Assembly (NCBI GenBank): GCA_039588275.1
Contig: JBDHAC010000034.1
Span: 29,997-65,807 of the forward strand
Direction: 5' to 3'
Length of the DNA: 35,811 nt
Source of the DNA: Gemmatimonadota bacterium
GTDB lineage: Bacteria > Gemmatimonadota > Gemmatimonadetes > Palauibacterales > Palauibacteraceae
Every line of letters starts with the position of its first letter. Positions within the stretch are counted from its first letter, which is position 1. The notes beneath the pieces were generated by a model that was given only the letters and a program-made list of their open reading frames with translations, was not told the DNA's origin and searched no databases. Below are positions 12,711 to 35,811 of the stretch, piece by piece. The position numbers and the translations under genes are program-made.

Positions 12711-13076
12711 GGGGGCGACACGGCTTCGACGCGTGAACCGGAAGCCGCGGGAGCGTGCCGAGGTGCTCGGAACCTCGAAAAACACCGGGAAAAACTTTAG
12801 CTGCCAACGACAACTTGGCGCTGGCTGCGTAAACTAGCGTAGCCCGTCCCGAGGCTTGGCCCGGCCCGAGGCCGGCCACGGGGCGACGACAAATCGGGCT
12901 GGTCACCAAAACACGCCGTGGGTGGAGGTGACGAGATCGCGGCTTCGGCCGCTCACGGCTGGTCCCGACCCGGTGGTCCGTGAACCGGCGATGGACGAGA
13001 CTCGAATCGCGGACTACGCACGTAGACACTGTGGTGGATGGGCTCGCGGACGCGGGTTCGATTCCCGCCGCCTCCA
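12711..13076 (+). ncRNA. ssrA: tmRNA (tag peptide ANDNLALAA*)
   Basis: 5' GGGGGCGACACGGCTTCGAC and 3' GCGGGTTCGATTCCCGCCGCCTCCA, with an acceptor stem carrying G3-U70. Tag ORF GCC AAC GAC AAC TTG GCG CTG GCT GCG TAA at 12803-12832. CCA is not encoded. Confidence 0.97.
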
Positions 13077-13083
13077 CTAGCAT

Positions 13084-15530: not shown

Positions 15531-16375
15531 TCCACGAGGAGCGCGATGAGGATCTGCGTCAAAAAGTAATCCGATGCGAGAATCAGGATGGAAGACGACA
15601 CCACAGCTTGCGTCGTGGCGCGTCCCACTCCTTCTGTGCCCCCCTCCGTCCGCAGCACGTAGTAGCAACTCGTCAACGCCATGATCCCACCGAAGGCGAT
15701 GGGTTTGACGAGGCCCTGGATCAAGTCGATCGGTATGTACCTGAGGACGAACCCCGTGTCGGCCAGACTCACGTAGACGGATCGCATGTATAGATCGGCA
15801 GTGAGGTCCAGCTTCACGATCGCGATCAGCAACCCGCCAAGGATCGCGATCAGATCCGTGATGATCGTCAACAACGGCAGCATGAGGAGGGCGGCGAGCA
15901 CGCGCGGCGTCACCAGCTTGCGGACGGGGGCGACGCCCATCGTGCGAAGCGCATCGACCTGTTCCGTGACCTTCATGGCCCCGATCGCGGCCGCCATCCC
16001 GGCTCCCGCGCGCCCGGTGACCATGAGCGCCGTCAGCACGGGCCCTAGCTCGCGCACCGCGCTCGCCCCAACGAGGCGTCCGATGTAGATGGTGGCGCCG
16101 AACTGCTTCATCTCCACCGCGGATTGAAGGGCCAGCACCATTCCCGTGAACAAGCCTGTGAGGACTACGATGAACAACGATTTGACCCCGATGGTGTCCA
16201 TCTGCTGGAGAAAGTCCCGAACGTAGGCGGGCTTCGTGAACACCGTCCGGATCACCCTGCCGAGGAGAGCGAAGTACTCCTGCACCGCGAACGCGACACG
16301 GAAGATGGAGTCGCGGGTCAGGCGCGCGGCGGAACGGCTGGCGGAGGGCTGGCCCATGGCCTCGTCTTTTGACAC
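15527..16375 (-). CDS. mlaE: MlaE-family ABC permease
   Basis: RELGPVLTALMVTGRAG, MKVTEQVDALRTMG..P...LV.PR, GGTEGVGRATT.AVV. Start could be ATG 16357. Confidence 0.92.
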   Translation of the reverse strand: MSKDEAMGQPSASRSAARLTRDSIFRVAFAVQEYFALLGRVIRTVFTKPAYVRDFLQQMDTIGVKSLFIVVLTGLFTGMVLALQSAVEMKQFGATIYIGRLVGASAVRELGPVLTALMVTGRAGAGMAAAIGAMKVTEQVDALRTMGVAPVRKLVTPRVLAALLMLPLLTIITDLIAILGGLLIAIVKLDLTADLYMRSVYVSLADTGFVLRYIPIDLIQGLVKPIAFGGIMALTSCYYVLRTEGGTEGVGRATTQAVVSSSILILASDYFLTQILIALLVE

Positions 16376-16512
16376 CCTTCGGAAGTTGGTCGTATTCTTC
16401 GCGCCCGATTTCGGCGCCCGGACGGCTGGCCTCGCTTACGGCCCGGCGAGTCCCGCATGCCCGGGCGTGGCGGAGGTTACCGGCGCCGACCGACACAACG
16501 CAAGATAGCTTG

Positions 16513-17526
16513 ATGATCCCTCCGACACTCACCCCTGCCATGCTCGAGCGCCTCCTCGCCGACGCCGTCGAAGCGCGGGTGCTGGTCATCGGAGACATCA
16601 TGCTCGACCGGTACCTGTCAGGCGAGGTGGGCCGCCTCTCGCCCGAGGCGCCGGTCCCGGTGCTCCAGGCCGTTGCGCACCGCCGAGCGCTGGGTGGCGC
16701 CGCCAACGTAGCGGCGGGCGTGCGAGCCCTGGGAGCCTCGTGTCATCTGGTGGGTGTCGTGGGTGATGATGCGGCCGGAGCGCACGTGCGTCGGCTCCTG
16801 AGCCGACGGGCCATTCCCACCGATGGGCTGGTCGTGGATCCTTCCAGACCGACCACGGCCAAGCTCCGCGTCCTCGCCAGACACCAGCAGATTGTCCGGA
16901 TAGACCGCGAGTCCACGGATCCGGTGAGCGACGGTGTGGCCGAGGCGCTCCTCGAGCGGGCCACCGCGCGTCTCGCGGAGGTGGACGTTCTGGTGTTCCA
17001 AGATTACGACAAAGGGTCGTTGCGTCCCGAGGTTGCCGGTCCCCTCCTGGCCGAGGCGCGGGCGAGGGACATCGTCTCGATCGTCGATCCGAAGCTCCGG
17101 AACTTCTTCGGGTACTCCGGTTGTCACGTGTTCAAGCCGAATGGTCGGGAAGTCGCTGCCGCGATGGGGCTCGAGAGCGCGCCCGAGGCGTTCGATGAGC
17201 TCCGTGCGGTCGCGACGCAAGTGGGGTGTCGGCACCTCTTCGTGACGCTTGGCGAGCGCGGGATTCGCCTGTTGGAGGAGGGCTCCGAGGCAGTCGAGCG
17301 GATTCCCTCGCATGCCCGCGAGGTGTACGATGTCTCGGGGGCAGGAGACACGGTCACCGCGGTGCTTGCGGTCGCGTTCGCTGCCAGGGCCACGCCCTCT
17401 GAGGCGGCCGTGCTGGCGAATTTCGCCGCAGGCCTGTCAGTTGCGCGATCGGGGGCGCGCCCGGTCGGGCGCAGGGAGATCCGAACAGGCCTGGAGGGGC
17501 AGGGCAGCCCACACGGCGGGGTATGA
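16513..17526 (+). CDS. hldA: D-glycero-beta-D-manno-heptose-7-phosphate kinase (RfaE domain I)
   Basis: VLVIGDIMLDRYL.G.V.RLSPEAPVPV, LGGAANVA, DY.KG, VDPK, VYDVSGAGDTV. Start 16513 or 16540. Confidence 0.92.
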   Translation: MIPPTLTPAMLERLLADAVEARVLVIGDIMLDRYLSGEVGRLSPEAPVPVLQAVAHRRALGGAANVAAGVRALGASCHLVGVVGDDAAGAHVRRLLSRRAIPTDGLVVDPSRPTTAKLRVLARHQQIVRIDRESTDPVSDGVAEALLERATARLAEVDVLVFQDYDKGSLRPEVAGPLLAEARARDIVSIVDPKLRNFFGYSGCHVFKPNGREVAAAMGLESAPEAFDELRAVATQVGCRHLFVTLGERGIRLLEEGSEAVERIPSHAREVYDVSGAGDTVTAVLAVAFAARATPSEAAVLANFAAGLSVARSGARPVGRREIRTGLEGQGSPHGGV

Positions 17527-17570
17527 CACTCGAGCGTCCGTCGGCCAATACCGAGACAGGAGTAGAGCGA

Positions 17571-17960
17571 GTGATACAGGATCAAACCGTTGCGACGGCA
17601 GCAGCCCCGGCAGCGATCGGACCCTACTCGCAGGGCACCTGGGCCGGCGATCTGTTCTTTTCCGCCGGGCAGATCGGCCTCGACCCCGAGAGCGGCGAGT
17701 TTGTGAGCGACGACGTGGCGGGGCAGGCTCATCGCGTGTTCCAGAACTTGCAGGCGGTCCTGAGCGCCGCCGGGCTCACGAGTTCTGACGTCGTCAAGAC
17801 GACGGTCTTCCTGGCCGACATGGGCGAGTTCGGGGTCGTGAACGAGATCTATGCCGAGTATTTCGACGCGCCCTATCCCTCGCGCTCCACCGTCGAGGCC
17901 GCGCGTCTGCCGCGCGACGCGCGAGTCGAGATTGAGGTCGTGGCCCACCGCTCCGACTGA
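17571..17960 (+). CDS. ridA: RidA/YjgF-family reactive intermediate deaminase
   Basis: APAAIGPYSQ, S.GQI.LDP..G, DVVKTTVFLADM.EF..VNEIY..YF..PYPSRSTV....LP....VEIE. GTG 17571 has AGGAG 8 nt upstream (alternative ATG 17523). Confidence 0.92.
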   Translation: MIQDQTVATAAAPAAIGPYSQGTWAGDLFFSAGQIGLDPESGEFVSDDVAGQAHRVFQNLQAVLSAAGLTSSDVVKTTVFLADMGEFGVVNEIYAEYFDAPYPSRSTVEAARLPRDARVEIEVVAHRSD

Positions 17961-18015
17961 TCGGACACCGTGCGATCGTGAGGCGAACCGGGTGAACCCG
18001 CGAGCGGGAGGATAG

Positions 18016-18111
18016 GGGAGCGGATGGCGACTGGTGTCGTCTGCGGTCTTCAAAACCGTCACGGGGCGTGCAAGCGTCCTGGGTGGGTTCGATTCCCACA
18101 CGTTCCCGCCA
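18016..18111 (+). tRNA. selC: tRNA-Sec (anticodon UCA)
   Basis: 6-bp D-stem GGCGAC/GTCGTC with TGGT loop; anticodon arm GCGGT-CTTCAAA-ACCGT; long variable arm CGGGGCGT-GCAA-GCGTCCTG; T-arm GTGGG-TTCGATT-CCCAC; discriminator G plus encoded CCA; 96 nt. selB is in the same window. Confidence 0.96.
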
Positions 18112-18638
18112 TCTTCCCGCCGCTGGCTCTGGCCGCGGCGCTTATCGCCGCGGCCCTCTCGCCATCGAGGGCGAGAGCCCAGGAACCCGAGCAGCCCCCT
18201 GTAGCCCGCGATACGGGCGCCGTCGTGGTGGCGGACACGAGTGCCGTCATGGTCGCGGACACGGTCCCTCCGGTCAGTCCGGTCGGCGCCCTTTTTAGAT
18301 CGCTCGTGCTCCCCGGGTGGGGACAGACCGCGGTTCAACGGCCGGCCCGCGGCGCCGTCTATTTCGCAGCCGAGACGGCCAGCCTGTTCATGGTGTTCAA
18401 GACTCAAGCGAAGCTGAGTGCCGCGCAGCGGGCGAACCCACCCAACGAGAGCCTCGTCGACAGTCGCACGGCGCAACGTGAGAACTGGATCGTTCTTTCA
18501 GCCTTCATTGCGTTTCTGAGCGGCCTCGATGCGTGGGTGTCCGCCCACTTCTGGGATTTCGAGCCCGAGGTCACGGTCCCCGACGACGGCTCTCAAGGGA
18601 TTCAGGTCACCTATCGCATCCCGTTGAGGATCCCCTGA
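18024..18638 (+). CDS. DUF5683-like exported/membrane protein (start uncertain, overlaps tRNA-Sec)
   Basis: SP.GALFRSLVLPGWGQ and ..LDAWVSAHF.DF motifs; signal peptide LALAAALIAAALSPSRARA|Q; C-terminal beta-strand. Confidence 0.75.
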   Translation: MATGVVCGLQNRHGACKRPGWVRFPHVPAIFPPLALAAALIAAALSPSRARAQEPEQPPVARDTGAVVVADTSAVMVADTVPPVSPVGALFRSLVLPGWGQTAVQRPARGAVYFAAETASLFMVFKTQAKLSAAQRANPPNESLVDSRTAQRENWIVLSAFIAFLSGLDAWVSAHFWDFEPEVTVPDDGSQGIQVTYRIPLRIP

Positions 18639-19516
18639 CAAGGCACCCGCACCCGCGCGGTGAAGCCGCCCCGCTCCATTTCGCTGCCGCCGGGTCCACG
18701 GATTCCGGCGCCCCGATCGGGGTGTTCGACTCGGGAATCGGCGGGCTCACGGTCCTACGCGCGATTCACCAACGCCTCCCGGCCGAGTCCACCATCTACC
18801 TGGGCGACACGGCCCGCCTTCCGTATGGTCCCAAGTCCCCGGAGACGGTACGCCGTTACGCCGCCGAAGCGACGGCATTCCTGCTCGAGCGCGGGGTGAA
18901 GGCGCTGGTTATCGCGTGTAACACCGCGACAGCGCACGCGTGCGAAGGGATCGCCGAAGCGCTCGAGATCCCCGTCATCGGCGTCGTCGAGCCCGGGGCG
19001 CGCGCCGCTGTGCTGCGCTCCGAGGTGAGCACGATCGGGGTGATCGGCACGCAGGGCACAATCGAAAGCGGTACCTACGAGCGGGCGATCCACACCCAGA
19101 GCCCGAACGCGACGGTCCACTCTGCCGCATGCCCGCTGTTCGTGGCGCTGGCCGAGGAGGGCTGGGTAGAGGGCGAGGTCGCTCGCCTGACGGCGGAACG
19201 TTACCTACGGCCACTTCTGCGGCAGGGGATCGACACGCTCGTGCTCGGGTGTACGCATTACCCCCTGCTCAAACCGCTCATCGCCCGGGTGGCCGGGGCC
19301 GGCATCACACTGGTCGATTCGGCCGAGGCCACCGCGGCCGCGCTCGAGGAGGACCTCGAGCACAGCGGACTTCTCACGGGGAGCTCGGCGCCCGACGTGC
19401 GCGAGTATTTCGTGACGGATGACGCGGAGCGCTTCCGCGCGATCGCGAAGCTCTTTCTCGGCAGACCGCTGGATCACCTCGAGCCGGTCGATCTCGGAGA
19501 GCCGTTCGGCCGCTAG
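18635..19516 (+). CDS. murI: Glutamate racemase
   Basis: PIGVFDSGIGGLTV, YLGDTARLPYGPKS, IACNTA, LVLGCTHYP. Start inferred at CTG 18635 (see findings). Confidence 0.95.
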   Translation: MTRHPHPRGEAAPLHFAAAGSTDSGAPIGVFDSGIGGLTVLRAIHQRLPAESTIYLGDTARLPYGPKSPETVRRYAAEATAFLLERGVKALVIACNTATAHACEGIAEALEIPVIGVVEPGARAAVLRSEVSTIGVIGTQGTIESGTYERAIHTQSPNATVHSAACPLFVALAEEGWVEGEVARLTAERYLRPLLRQGIDTLVLGCTHYPLLKPLIARVAGAGITLVDSAEATAAALEEDLEHSGLLTGSSAPDVREYFVTDDAERFRAIAKLFLGRPLDHLEPVDLGEPFGR

Positions 19517-20259
19517 GAGGGCGGGTCATCCTCCCACCTGAGGAGACGTATGGAGCCCGGGTCGACGAGGGCATACGTGAAGTGGTGGATCCAGTCCCCC
19601 GCATTCAGGTAAAAGCGGCCCGGCTCGACTTCCCGGAGCTCCGGCCGGTGCGCGTGTCCGAACACCACCAGCTGCAGCGACGGATCCGCCCGCAGGAGCC
19701 TTGCGGCGTGCTGTGACAGATGGTCGGCCCGAGCGTCCTCTCCGCCCGGCCCCGCGGATTGCTTCTGCAACGTGGCGCTAGCGTGCGAGGCGACCCGAGT
19801 TCCAAGATCGGGGTGCACGAGGCGGAAGAGGGCCCTGCCCGGACCGCTCCGCGTCACGCGCTTCAGGAAGCGATAGCCCAGATCACCTCCACCCAGCCCG
19901 TCTCCGTGCGCCACGTATGCCCTCCGCCCCCCGACCTCGGTAACCACGGGCCCGTCCAGGAGCTCCAGTCCGATCTCGTCGCGCAGAAAGTCGCCCCCCC
20001 ATGCGTCGTGGTTTCCCCCCACCAGCCGCACGCGCACGCCAGCGCGGACGACATCGGTGAGGCGTCGGAGAGTATGGAAGTGGTTTCGCAGAATGACGCT
20101 ACGGTACTCGAACCAGAAGTCGAACAGATCGCCGTTGATCAGCAGTTCGGTCGCCAGCGACGGAATGCGCTCCAGAAGTTCCCCGAACGCCCGCTCGTTG
20201 TGGGCGGGAACGGCCCCCAGGTGTGCATCAGACACGATGAGCGTTGCGCGTGTGGCCAT
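19513..20259 (-). CDS. lpxH: UDP-2,3-diacylglucosamine hydrolase (LpxH-like metallophosphoesterase)
   Basis: SDAHLG, GDLFDFWFEY, GNHD, HGDG, FGHAH, YLNAGDW. Start ATG 20259 or 20271. Confidence 0.85.
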   Translation of the reverse strand: MATRATLIVSDAHLGAVPAHNERAFGELLERIPSLATELLINGDLFDFWFEYRSVILRNHFHTLRRLTDVVRAGVRVRLVGGNHDAWGGDFLRDEIGLELLDGPVVTEVGGRRAYVAHGDGLGGGDLGYRFLKRVTRSGPGRALFRLVHPDLGTRVASHASATLQKQSAGPGGEDARADHLSQHAARLLRADPSLQLVVFGHAHRPELREVEPGRFYLNAGDWIHHFTYALVDPGSIRLLRWEDDPPS

Positions 20260-35739: not shown

Positions 35740-35811
35740 CGGGGCGTGGCGCAGTCCGGTAGCGCACCTGCTTTGGGAGCAGGGGGTCGCCGGTTCGAAT
35801 CCGGCCGCCCC
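35740..35811 (+). tRNA. tRNA-Pro (anticodon UGG), 3' end truncated by window edge
   Basis: CGGGGCG-TG-GCGC-AGTCCGGTA-GCGC-A-CCTGC-TTTGGGA-GCAGG-GGGTC-GCCGG-TTCGAAT-CCGGC-CGCCCC; CATAAT -10-like box at 35725-35730. Confidence 0.95.

Follow-up and report, generated by a model that had tools for sequence, protein, structure and literature searches.

The window analysed here is a stretch of 35,811 nucleotides (nt) from a Gemmatimonadota bacterium (assembly GCA_039588275.1, contig JBDHAC010000034.1, positions 29,997 to 65,807 of the forward strand). It contains selC, the gene for the selenocysteine (Sec) tRNA, followed by a gene for a DUF5683-family envelope protein that is joined to it. As judged from sequence comparison, translation of the DUF5683 gene probably initiates inside the tRNA-Sec gene, at the AUG of tRNA nt 9–11 (position 18024), on an unprocessed ridA-selC-DUF5683-murI transcript. 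We lean, with a little more than even confidence, towards initiation within the tRNA gene, and we rate a non-canonical start at the tRNA junction, such as CTG 18123 or CTG 18129, as rather unlikely. The DUF5683-family gene likely lacks an initiation region of its own.

The tRNA-Sec gene (18016–18111) is 96 nt long and has the anticodon tca, as called by ARAGORN. It matches the Rfam model RF01852 at model positions 1–91 of 91 with 75.7 bits against a gathering score of 47 (E = 2.3e-15), and the long variable arm is present in the Rfam structure line. It is the one tRNA-Sec above the Rfam cut-off in the whole host genome (G000; 4.1 Mb, 66.7% GC). The tRNA is predicted to be in use, since the genome holds Sec machinery; the component searched for was SelA (PF03841), which was found with 440.7 bits. 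A weak Rfam match to CcsR1 (17.8 bits versus 65.3) was dismissed as chance.

Nucleotides 9–96 of the tRNA lie within an open reading frame (ORF) on the same strand (18024–18638). The ridA gene upstream ends with TGA 17958–17960 in the frame of this ORF. In the initial annotation, which was made from the sequence alone, the ORF was described as bounded by a TGA at 17979, with ATG 18024 as the sole ATG, GTG or TTG before the signal peptide; the sequence and the ORF list confirm both points. Relative to the tRNA 3′ end, the in-frame canonical codons are ATG at −87 (18024), GTG at +114 and +117 (18225 and 18228) and ATG at +138 (18249), and there are no more.

Around the tRNA end the translation reads ...CKRPGWVRFPHVPAI / FPPLALAAALIAAALSPSRARA / QE, where the first slash is the end of the tRNA and the second is the AxA/Q cleavage motif at 18179/18180. 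Twenty-nine codons, MATGVVCGLQNRHGACKRPGWVRFPHVPAI, are read from the tRNA, and after FPPLALAAALIAAALSPSRARA the protein continues QEPEQ.... The hydrophobic core begins right after the CCA, as initially described, with its onset one codon past it, and the next canonical start, GTG 18225, is indeed past the cleavage site. The layout, LALAAALIAAAL ... ARA/QE, is a hydrophobic core and then a small-x-small motif; it is the same in the displayed homologues, where the AxA/Q(E/D) motif is kept. Here, signal peptides were judged by eye and with a Kyte–Doolittle window, using a core of at least about 8 residues as the criterion. The basic n-region (K, three R and two H, with no acidic residue) exists only when the tRNA-encoded residues are translated and is absent from a protein begun at ATC 18111 or CTG 18123/18129. 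Hydrophobicity alone was retained as a signal of coding, as there is no third-position excess in the 8 codons that follow the tRNA: for two groups of relatives, the minimum changes at codon positions 1, 2 and 3 are 10, 7, 11 and 15, 11, 19. Similarly, sliding third-position GC over 17940–18330 did not separate the frames.

The protein could instead start past the cleavage site, at GTG 18225, GTG 18228 or ATG 18249. It would then have no signal peptide, and 18114–18179 would be a spacer that is open by chance and untranslated. These are the first canonical codons past the tRNA. Exact look-up in public collections returns two calls of the gene, one of 204 amino acids (aa) that starts inside the tRNA and one of 129 aa from ATG 18249, and the Pfam DUF5683 match begins 9 residues after the Met of ATG 18249. 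This match (PF18935, aa 85–179, profile positions 4–118 of 151) is borderline, its 26.7 bits being exactly the cut-off. None of the three codons has a Shine–Dalgarno (SD)-like motif, however, and the stretch 18114–18179 stays in frame and hydrophobic as the sequence diverges. In addition, the core and the AxA/Q(E/D) motif are at the same place in the displayed homologues, which include genes of a sister family with an ordinary ATG and a basic n-region. A start this far downstream is therefore considered very improbable.

Among the candidate codons, ATG 18024 alone is preceded by an SD-like motif; ATC 18111, CTG 18123/18129, GTG 18225/18228 and ATG 18249 have none. The GGGAGG at 18006–18011 and the purine run at 18014–18020, to which the initial annotation pointed, are both present, such that a GGAGG ends 12 nt and a GGAG 3 nt upstream of the ATG. 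The 16S tail of the host genome is CCTCCTT, and SD-like 4-mers in this genome peak at −12 to −9, with 146 of 369 fairly unambiguous starts carrying one. Folding of 17990–18140 gave a minimum free energy of −78.6 kcal/mol (z = −2.9). In the predicted structure, the leader 18000–18013 pairs with the trailer 18111–18123, which lengthens the acceptor stem and buries the SD-like motif. This pairing was rejected as a feature of the family: although it is strong in both the window (−26.4 kcal/mol) and the B-96 lineage defined below, the mean for leaders and trailers of the same locus is −14.9 versus −14.2 for mismatched ones.

If translation does start at ATG 18024, ribosomes would load at the SD and this ATG on nascent RNA, before the 3′ acceptor strand exists. 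The tRNA sequence would be read as its 29 codons, producing a long, basic, acid-free n-region that leads into the hydrophobic core. Folding of the tRNA, by comparison, would permit RNase P and 3′ trimming to release tRNA-Sec, thereby severing the start codon from the downstream message. In the host genome of the window, the leader–trailer pairing would additionally bury the SD. One transcript could in this way yield tRNA or protein, or protein first and then tRNA, and murI is likely coupled to the DUF5683 ORF by a stop/start overlap.

The same ATG could also be used on a transcript of its own, made from an internal promoter with a 5′ end inside the tRNA or shortly upstream of it, and possibly as a leaderless mRNA. 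Such an RNA would be unable to fold as a tRNA, and tRNA and protein would come from different RNAs. This fits all of the comparative data for a start inside the tRNA and avoids competition with RNase P. It also fits the 36 nt around the tRNA 5′ end, which are nearly identical in three genomes of the genus (G000, G001 and G002) despite the loss of the rest of the tRNA in G001. A consensus scan of 16300–19700 argues against it, as no sigma-70-like promoter was found near 17960–18030 and the sole match is at 16369–16398, in a scan that is crude for a phylum whose promoters are uncharacterised. We think a separate transcript improbable. The promoter and terminator scan found no terminator near the tRNA. 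A terminator-like hairpin at 18270–18286 on the plus strand, followed by a T-run to 18296, is located inside the conserved PVSPVGALFRS coding stretch and is probably due to chance.

The joining of the two genes is a property of the whole family. A DUF5683 gene is present in 109 of 114 family genomes, and 102 of the 105 oriented loci have tRNA-Sec immediately upstream in the same orientation, in the order ridA-selC-DUF5683. The three exceptions are a deletion (L002), an insertion (L040) and a 433-nt stretch at a contig end (L090). In the genus-level set, ridA precedes selC in 25/25 loci, and tblastn recovered the synteny in 26/30. The hydrophobic core is mostly within a few codons of the tRNA 3′ end, and all three codon phases relative to this end occur. 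This rules out a frame that is set by tRNA structure, as in decoding from a fixed point past the CCA in the manner of an internal ribosome entry site or a transfer-messenger RNA (tmRNA). The loci fall into the classes A-96 (...PHVPAI/, which includes the window), B-97 and B-96 (...PTRSRH/), A-98, and C-94 and C-97, where the slash is again the tRNA end. In a tree of the loci made from ridA, DUF5683 and murI, A-96 is one clade (Shimodaira–Hasegawa-like approximate likelihood-ratio support of 95) with A-98 as its sister; the B states branch at the base, and the two C states are nested at separate places.

Most of these loci have no start of their own. Between the tRNA end and the hydrophobic core, a canonical start is absent from 63 of the 102 family loci, weak in 25 and good in 14, a start being counted as weak when it is a GTG or TTG that coincides with or falls within the core and no basic residue follows. 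Three loci (L032, L094 and L049, the last from a single-contig genome) have no usable start before or within the early core.

Further support for a start inside the tRNA came from a survey extended to the phylum, in which tRNA-Sec was found in 114 of 151 genomes. Outside the family 118 loci were read; ARAGORN called the tRNA in 117, and a DUF5683 gene is within 400 nt of selC in 44. These 44 and the 102 family loci make up a combined set of 146. A path, defined as an in-frame start in the tRNA or at most 60 nt upstream together with an open frame to the gene, is present in 140 of them, and the own start of these is absent in 82, weak in 30 and good in 28. All six loci without a path (L014, L196, L200, L202, L206 and L233) have a good own start and a basic n-region. 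Fisher's test for path versus own start gives p = 1.1e-4, an overstated value, as the loci are kin and represent roughly six lineages. Consistent with this, the core begins a median of 3 codons past the tRNA in loci without an own start versus 19 codons in those with a good one.

The same complementarity is visible within groups. In one genus of another family, seven loci are in the sole frame that holds the two GTGs of the tRNA and six of them have no own start; three loci are in other frames and all have one. Seven class-A loci outside the family have an in-frame TTG10 or ATG10, and here the own start is good in one, weak in three and absent in three. A good own start is found in five of the seven class-A loci without TTG10/ATG10, and class-A loci with GGATCG have an own start. 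Two loci of another family (L131 and L153) have an unusual tRNA-Sec with the D-stem CCATTC/GAATGG. Its D-arm reads TGA-ATG in the gene frame, and the variable arm adds another in-frame ATG; past the tRNA, L131 is without an own start.

An own start past the CCA and in-frame stops inside the tRNA were both named at the outset as findings that would speak against the idea. Both are found in some relatives, but they occur together, which supports a start inside the tRNA instead of refuting it. Of the 81 stop triplets inside family tRNAs, only 3 are in the gene frame (L014, L073 and L077), and all three loci have their own start. The claim that the gene starts inside tRNA-Sec thus gains from the fusion across the family, the missing own starts and the own starts in 6/6 loci without a path, while CTG 18123/18129 remains a rival. 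For the phylum as a whole, we put at about even the chance of a broader scheme, in which selC also serves as the 5′ part of the coding region for an envelope protein by supplying its start codon and n-region. Under this scheme, starts would have arisen repeatedly in or at the edge of the tRNA (ATG9, ATG10, TTG10 and ATG −2), frame slips would be rescued by stop/start overlaps in the variable loop, and each transcript would choose between tRNA-Sec and DUF5683 with the coupled murI.

Position 9 lacks an ATG or is not in the gene frame in 26 loci, and in every one of them the gene is read in the −1 frame. In 19 of the 26, a canonical start in the gene frame, at or before the signal peptide, overlaps the stop of the position-9 ORF as GTGA, TTGA or ATGA. 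In L014, L105, L106 and L109, the start overlapped in this way is the candidate own start of the gene. Six of the 10 loci of the B-96 lineage carry an ATG at −2 to +1 in the gene frame. The two tRNAs without ATG9 (L059 and L067) each have an ATG at −2 or −11. These patterns, too, count in favour of a start inside the tRNA.

Several observations weigh against initiation inside the tRNA. To our knowledge, initiation within the acceptor/D-arm junction of a tRNA has never been shown, and the SD spacing for ATG 18024 is suboptimal. The open frame through the tRNA, which the initial annotation stressed, is real but has little meaning: the tRNA has no TAA, TAG or TGA in any of its three frames, so an open frame is no evidence by itself, and the in-frame ATG is partly automatic. 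Several other tRNA genes of this GC-rich genome are also crossed by open frames. After these, however, a canonical start comes at +16 to +51 nt, whereas for selC the first is at +114, and this difference counts in favour of a start inside the tRNA. Comparison of selC across relatives bears out the ATG at nt 9–11 (100/102 family loci) and the open path, but this ATG is fixed by the tRNA and its conservation is therefore uninformative. Outside the family, 16 of 112 tRNA-Sec genes carry it too, mostly not in the frame of the gene, which there has a start of its own. As the 96-nt family tRNA has a conserved NTG in each frame (ATG9, the D-loop GTG19 and a T-stem GTG at −28), an available start is nearly automatic, and the null frames likewise have a start and an open path in 71/102 and 28/102 loci.

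The counts of loci call for similar caution. Position 9 is in frame with the gene in 76/102 family loci, but fusion freezes the frame, which leaves the loci far from independent, and the counts overstate the case. Counted by lineage, about 2 of about 6 frame states put ATG9 in frame, as expected by chance; the significance first attached to ATG9 being in frame in 18 of 24 genus representatives was dropped for this reason. For the −1 loci, the GTGA of the variable loop may be a structural loop motif, and any TGA creates an NTG in the −1 frame.

Other points against the AUG of nt 9–11 come from variants of the locus, and these are best weighed together with a non-canonical start at or just after the tRNA 3′ end (AUC 18111, CUG 18123 or CUG 18129). 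Here, the tRNA would be untranslated and the signal peptide would be 17–23 aa long without a basic n-region. A genome of the same genus (G001, locus L002) has a clean 95-nt deletion that aligns to window positions 18036–18130, from the D-loop to the sixth codon past the tRNA, while the leader and ~19 nt at the tRNA 5′ end are retained almost unchanged. The deletion puts a GTG at the position of CTG 18129, resulting in a 17-aa signal peptide without a basic n-region, and a short signal peptide may thus be enough. Codon 18129 is CTG in G000, TTG in G002 and GTG in the G001 variant; it is an NTG in all three genomes of the genus, each giving a signal peptide of 17 aa. No tRNA-Sec above the cut-off was found in the G001 assembly, which is 84% complete, and SelA is intact there.

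The neighbouring murI gene points the same way. Its start overlaps the DUF5683 stop as ATGA or GTGA in most relatives, including G002, and as CTGA in the window and G001. In the murI frame of the window (18632–18720) there is no ATG, GTG or TTG from the DUF5683 stop to the conserved IGVFDSG motif. This suggests a CTG start by translational coupling for murI, an essential gene, so non-canonical starts may be tolerated in the operon. Across the genome, CTGA is not enriched at NTGA junctions (C 110/1058, T 35/282, A 200/423 and G 160/729, with a crude gene finder), which is an argument against such starts. A requirement for third-position GC of at least 0.85 was too strict for this count (624 ORFs) and was loosened.

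Across the family, a codon with one mismatch to a canonical start is rightly placed for a junction start in 44/102 loci, and in 19 of these an ATC or ATT spans the junction. Low use of the SD would also favour this start; in a published anti-SD/SD analysis (PMC10783764) the class Gemmatimonadetes has a value of 22, taken here as low SD use, the figure being undefined in the passages drawn on. Against it, in the interval that runs from the junction codon to the second core residue, 19/102 loci have neither a canonical nor a one-mismatch codon, and the junction codon is not conserved, being ATH, ACC, AAT or AAG. The region also lacks an SD and is predicted to be base-paired to the leader. Finally, a junction start, if general, predicts fused loci without an own start in frames that lack a start inside the tRNA, and 0/6 such loci are of this kind. 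Initiation at the AUG of tRNA nt 9–11 is thus still preferred.

An insertion in another genome (G121, loci L040 and L111) also counts against this preferred start. An AT-rich segment of ~10.7 kb is inserted at the 3′ end of tRNA-Sec and parts it from an intact DUF5683 gene. A 16-nt direct copy of the tRNA 3′ end is present at the far side, just before the DUF5683 signal peptide, and the end of the insert has in-frame ATG and GTG codons. The insertion looks like an island that integrated at selC.

The sister family (L026–L030) provides a view of how the fusion may have originated. Here, a gene with the motif ...HLDGEYR..., absent from the window's family, sits between selC and the DUF5683 gene. 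The latter begins at an ATG of its own, which overlaps the stop of the intervening gene as ATGA in 5/5 loci, and its signal peptide is at the same place, after this ordinary ATG and a basic n-region. Because of this overlap, the DUF5683 gene seems to be habitually expressed by coupling. The sister-family tRNA-Sec has ATC at nt 9–11 in 6 of 8 genes, which, taken with the gene's own ATG there, counts in favour of a start inside the tRNA in the fused loci. The fused state is likely the outcome of losing the gene that separates selC from DUF5683 in the sister family, whereby the signal peptide was joined to the tRNA 3′ end.

Table 1. Features of the ridA-selC-DUF5683-murI locus, in window coordinates (a slash in a peptide marks predicted cleavage)
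Feature	Position	Strand	Basis or remark
ridA-like gene (Endoribonuclease L-PSP)	17523..17960	+	Pfam PF01042, 139.5 bits
In-frame TGA, upstream limit of the DUF5683 open frame	17979..17981	+	Sequence, ORF list
tRNA 5′ leader	18000..18013	+	Holds SD-like GGGAGG 18006–18011; predicted pairing with trailer 18111–18123
Purine run	18014–18020	+	Sequence
tRNA-Sec gene (selC), 96 nt, CCA encoded	18016..18111	+	ARAGORN, RF01852
ATG of tRNA nt 9–11, proposed initiation codon	18024..18026	+	Sole in-frame canonical start before the signal peptide
DUF5683-family envelope protein precursor ORF, 204 aa	18024..18638	+	ORF list; one public gene call
3′ trailer from the last A of CCA; encodes I-F-P-P	18111..18123	+	Predicted pairing with leader; contains near-cognate rival start ATC 18111
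Signal-peptide hydrophobic core and c-region (FPPLALAAALIAAALSPSRARA)	18114..18179	+	Predicted cleavage ARA/QE between 18179 and 18180
CTG 18123 and CTG 18129, rival non-canonical starts	18123..18131	+	Sequence
GTG 18225, GTG 18228 and ATG 18249, rival canonical starts past the cleavage site	18225..18251	+	Would yield a protein without signal peptide
DUF5683 domain, aa 85–179 of the 204-aa ORF	18276..18560	+	PF18935, 26.7 bits
murI (glutamate racemase)	18635..19516	+	PF01177, 100 bits

Away from this locus (Table 1), the window contains a tmRNA gene with the tag ANDNLALAA at 12711–13077 and a tRNA-Pro at 35740–35811 that runs off the window end.

The arrangement was initially thought to be undescribed, and this is not wholly so. 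For Alphaproteobacteria, a selC gene within the selB ORF has been predicted, and the two overlap partially in some Gammaproteobacteria and Nitrospirae (Mukai 2021, Int J Mol Sci, PMC8124441); the passages of that paper used here present it as the first description of a nested tRNA in a bacterial ORF. As described there, the two cases are alike in that the whole or nearly whole tRNA-Sec is in a protein ORF of the same strand, the evidence is purely comparative, and a tRNA length of 96 or 93 nt helps to keep the frame. The author also proposes tRNA processing and translation of the host ORF as alternatives, as we do, and translation of the nested tRNA sequence is a prediction in both (PMC8124441). 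The cases differ in that the tRNA in selB is at the 3′ end, as a C-terminal extension of a Sec-pathway gene whose ORF has an ordinary start (PMC8124441). In Gemmatimonadota, the tRNA is at the 5′ end and the host is not selB; the tRNA would supply the start codon and n-region to an unrelated DUF5683-family envelope protein. The frame relation also varies by lineage, being directly in-frame, −1 with an NTGA overlap, or replaced by an own start.

Animal mitochondria have tRNA genes that overlap or are inside protein genes, such as tRNA-Lys in cox1 of Armadillidium vulgare (as cited in PMC8124441). As in our case, a tRNA and part of a protein share the same strand of one piece of DNA, and excision of the tRNA would destroy the mRNA. 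The setting is different, however, being a compact organelle genome with reduced tRNAs and tRNA-punctuated processing versus a 4-Mb bacterial genome with ample intergenic space. A co-transcript of tRNAs and an mRNA is found in Escherichia coli, namely thrU-tyrU-glyT-thrT-tufB. There too, tRNA and a downstream protein gene come from one transcript and are parted by nucleases, but the protein gene has its own ribosome-binding site and start past the tRNA, which is untranslated. No bacterial ORF with its start in a tRNA gene came up in our literature search; the closest case is that of selB, as presented in the passages of PMC8124441.

If the proposed start is correct, a functional tRNA gene would also be read as the first 29 codons of a secreted protein, which is undocumented in bacteria, and the DUF5683 gene would be the first in bacteria known to start translation within a functional tRNA. 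There are consequences for annotation as well. Gene callers disagree on the DUF5683 gene (204 versus 129 aa), and pipelines that bar overlap of protein and tRNA genes would strip the signal peptide from a whole protein family. The natural variants, which comprise in-frame fusions, −1 overlaps, own-start loci, a deletion and an island insertion, are a ready design for reporter tests. For the organism, initiation at this AUG would mean that ribosomes can initiate on a pre-tRNA before it folds, and that tRNA maturation inherently competes with expression of the genes further down, among them the cell-wall gene murI.

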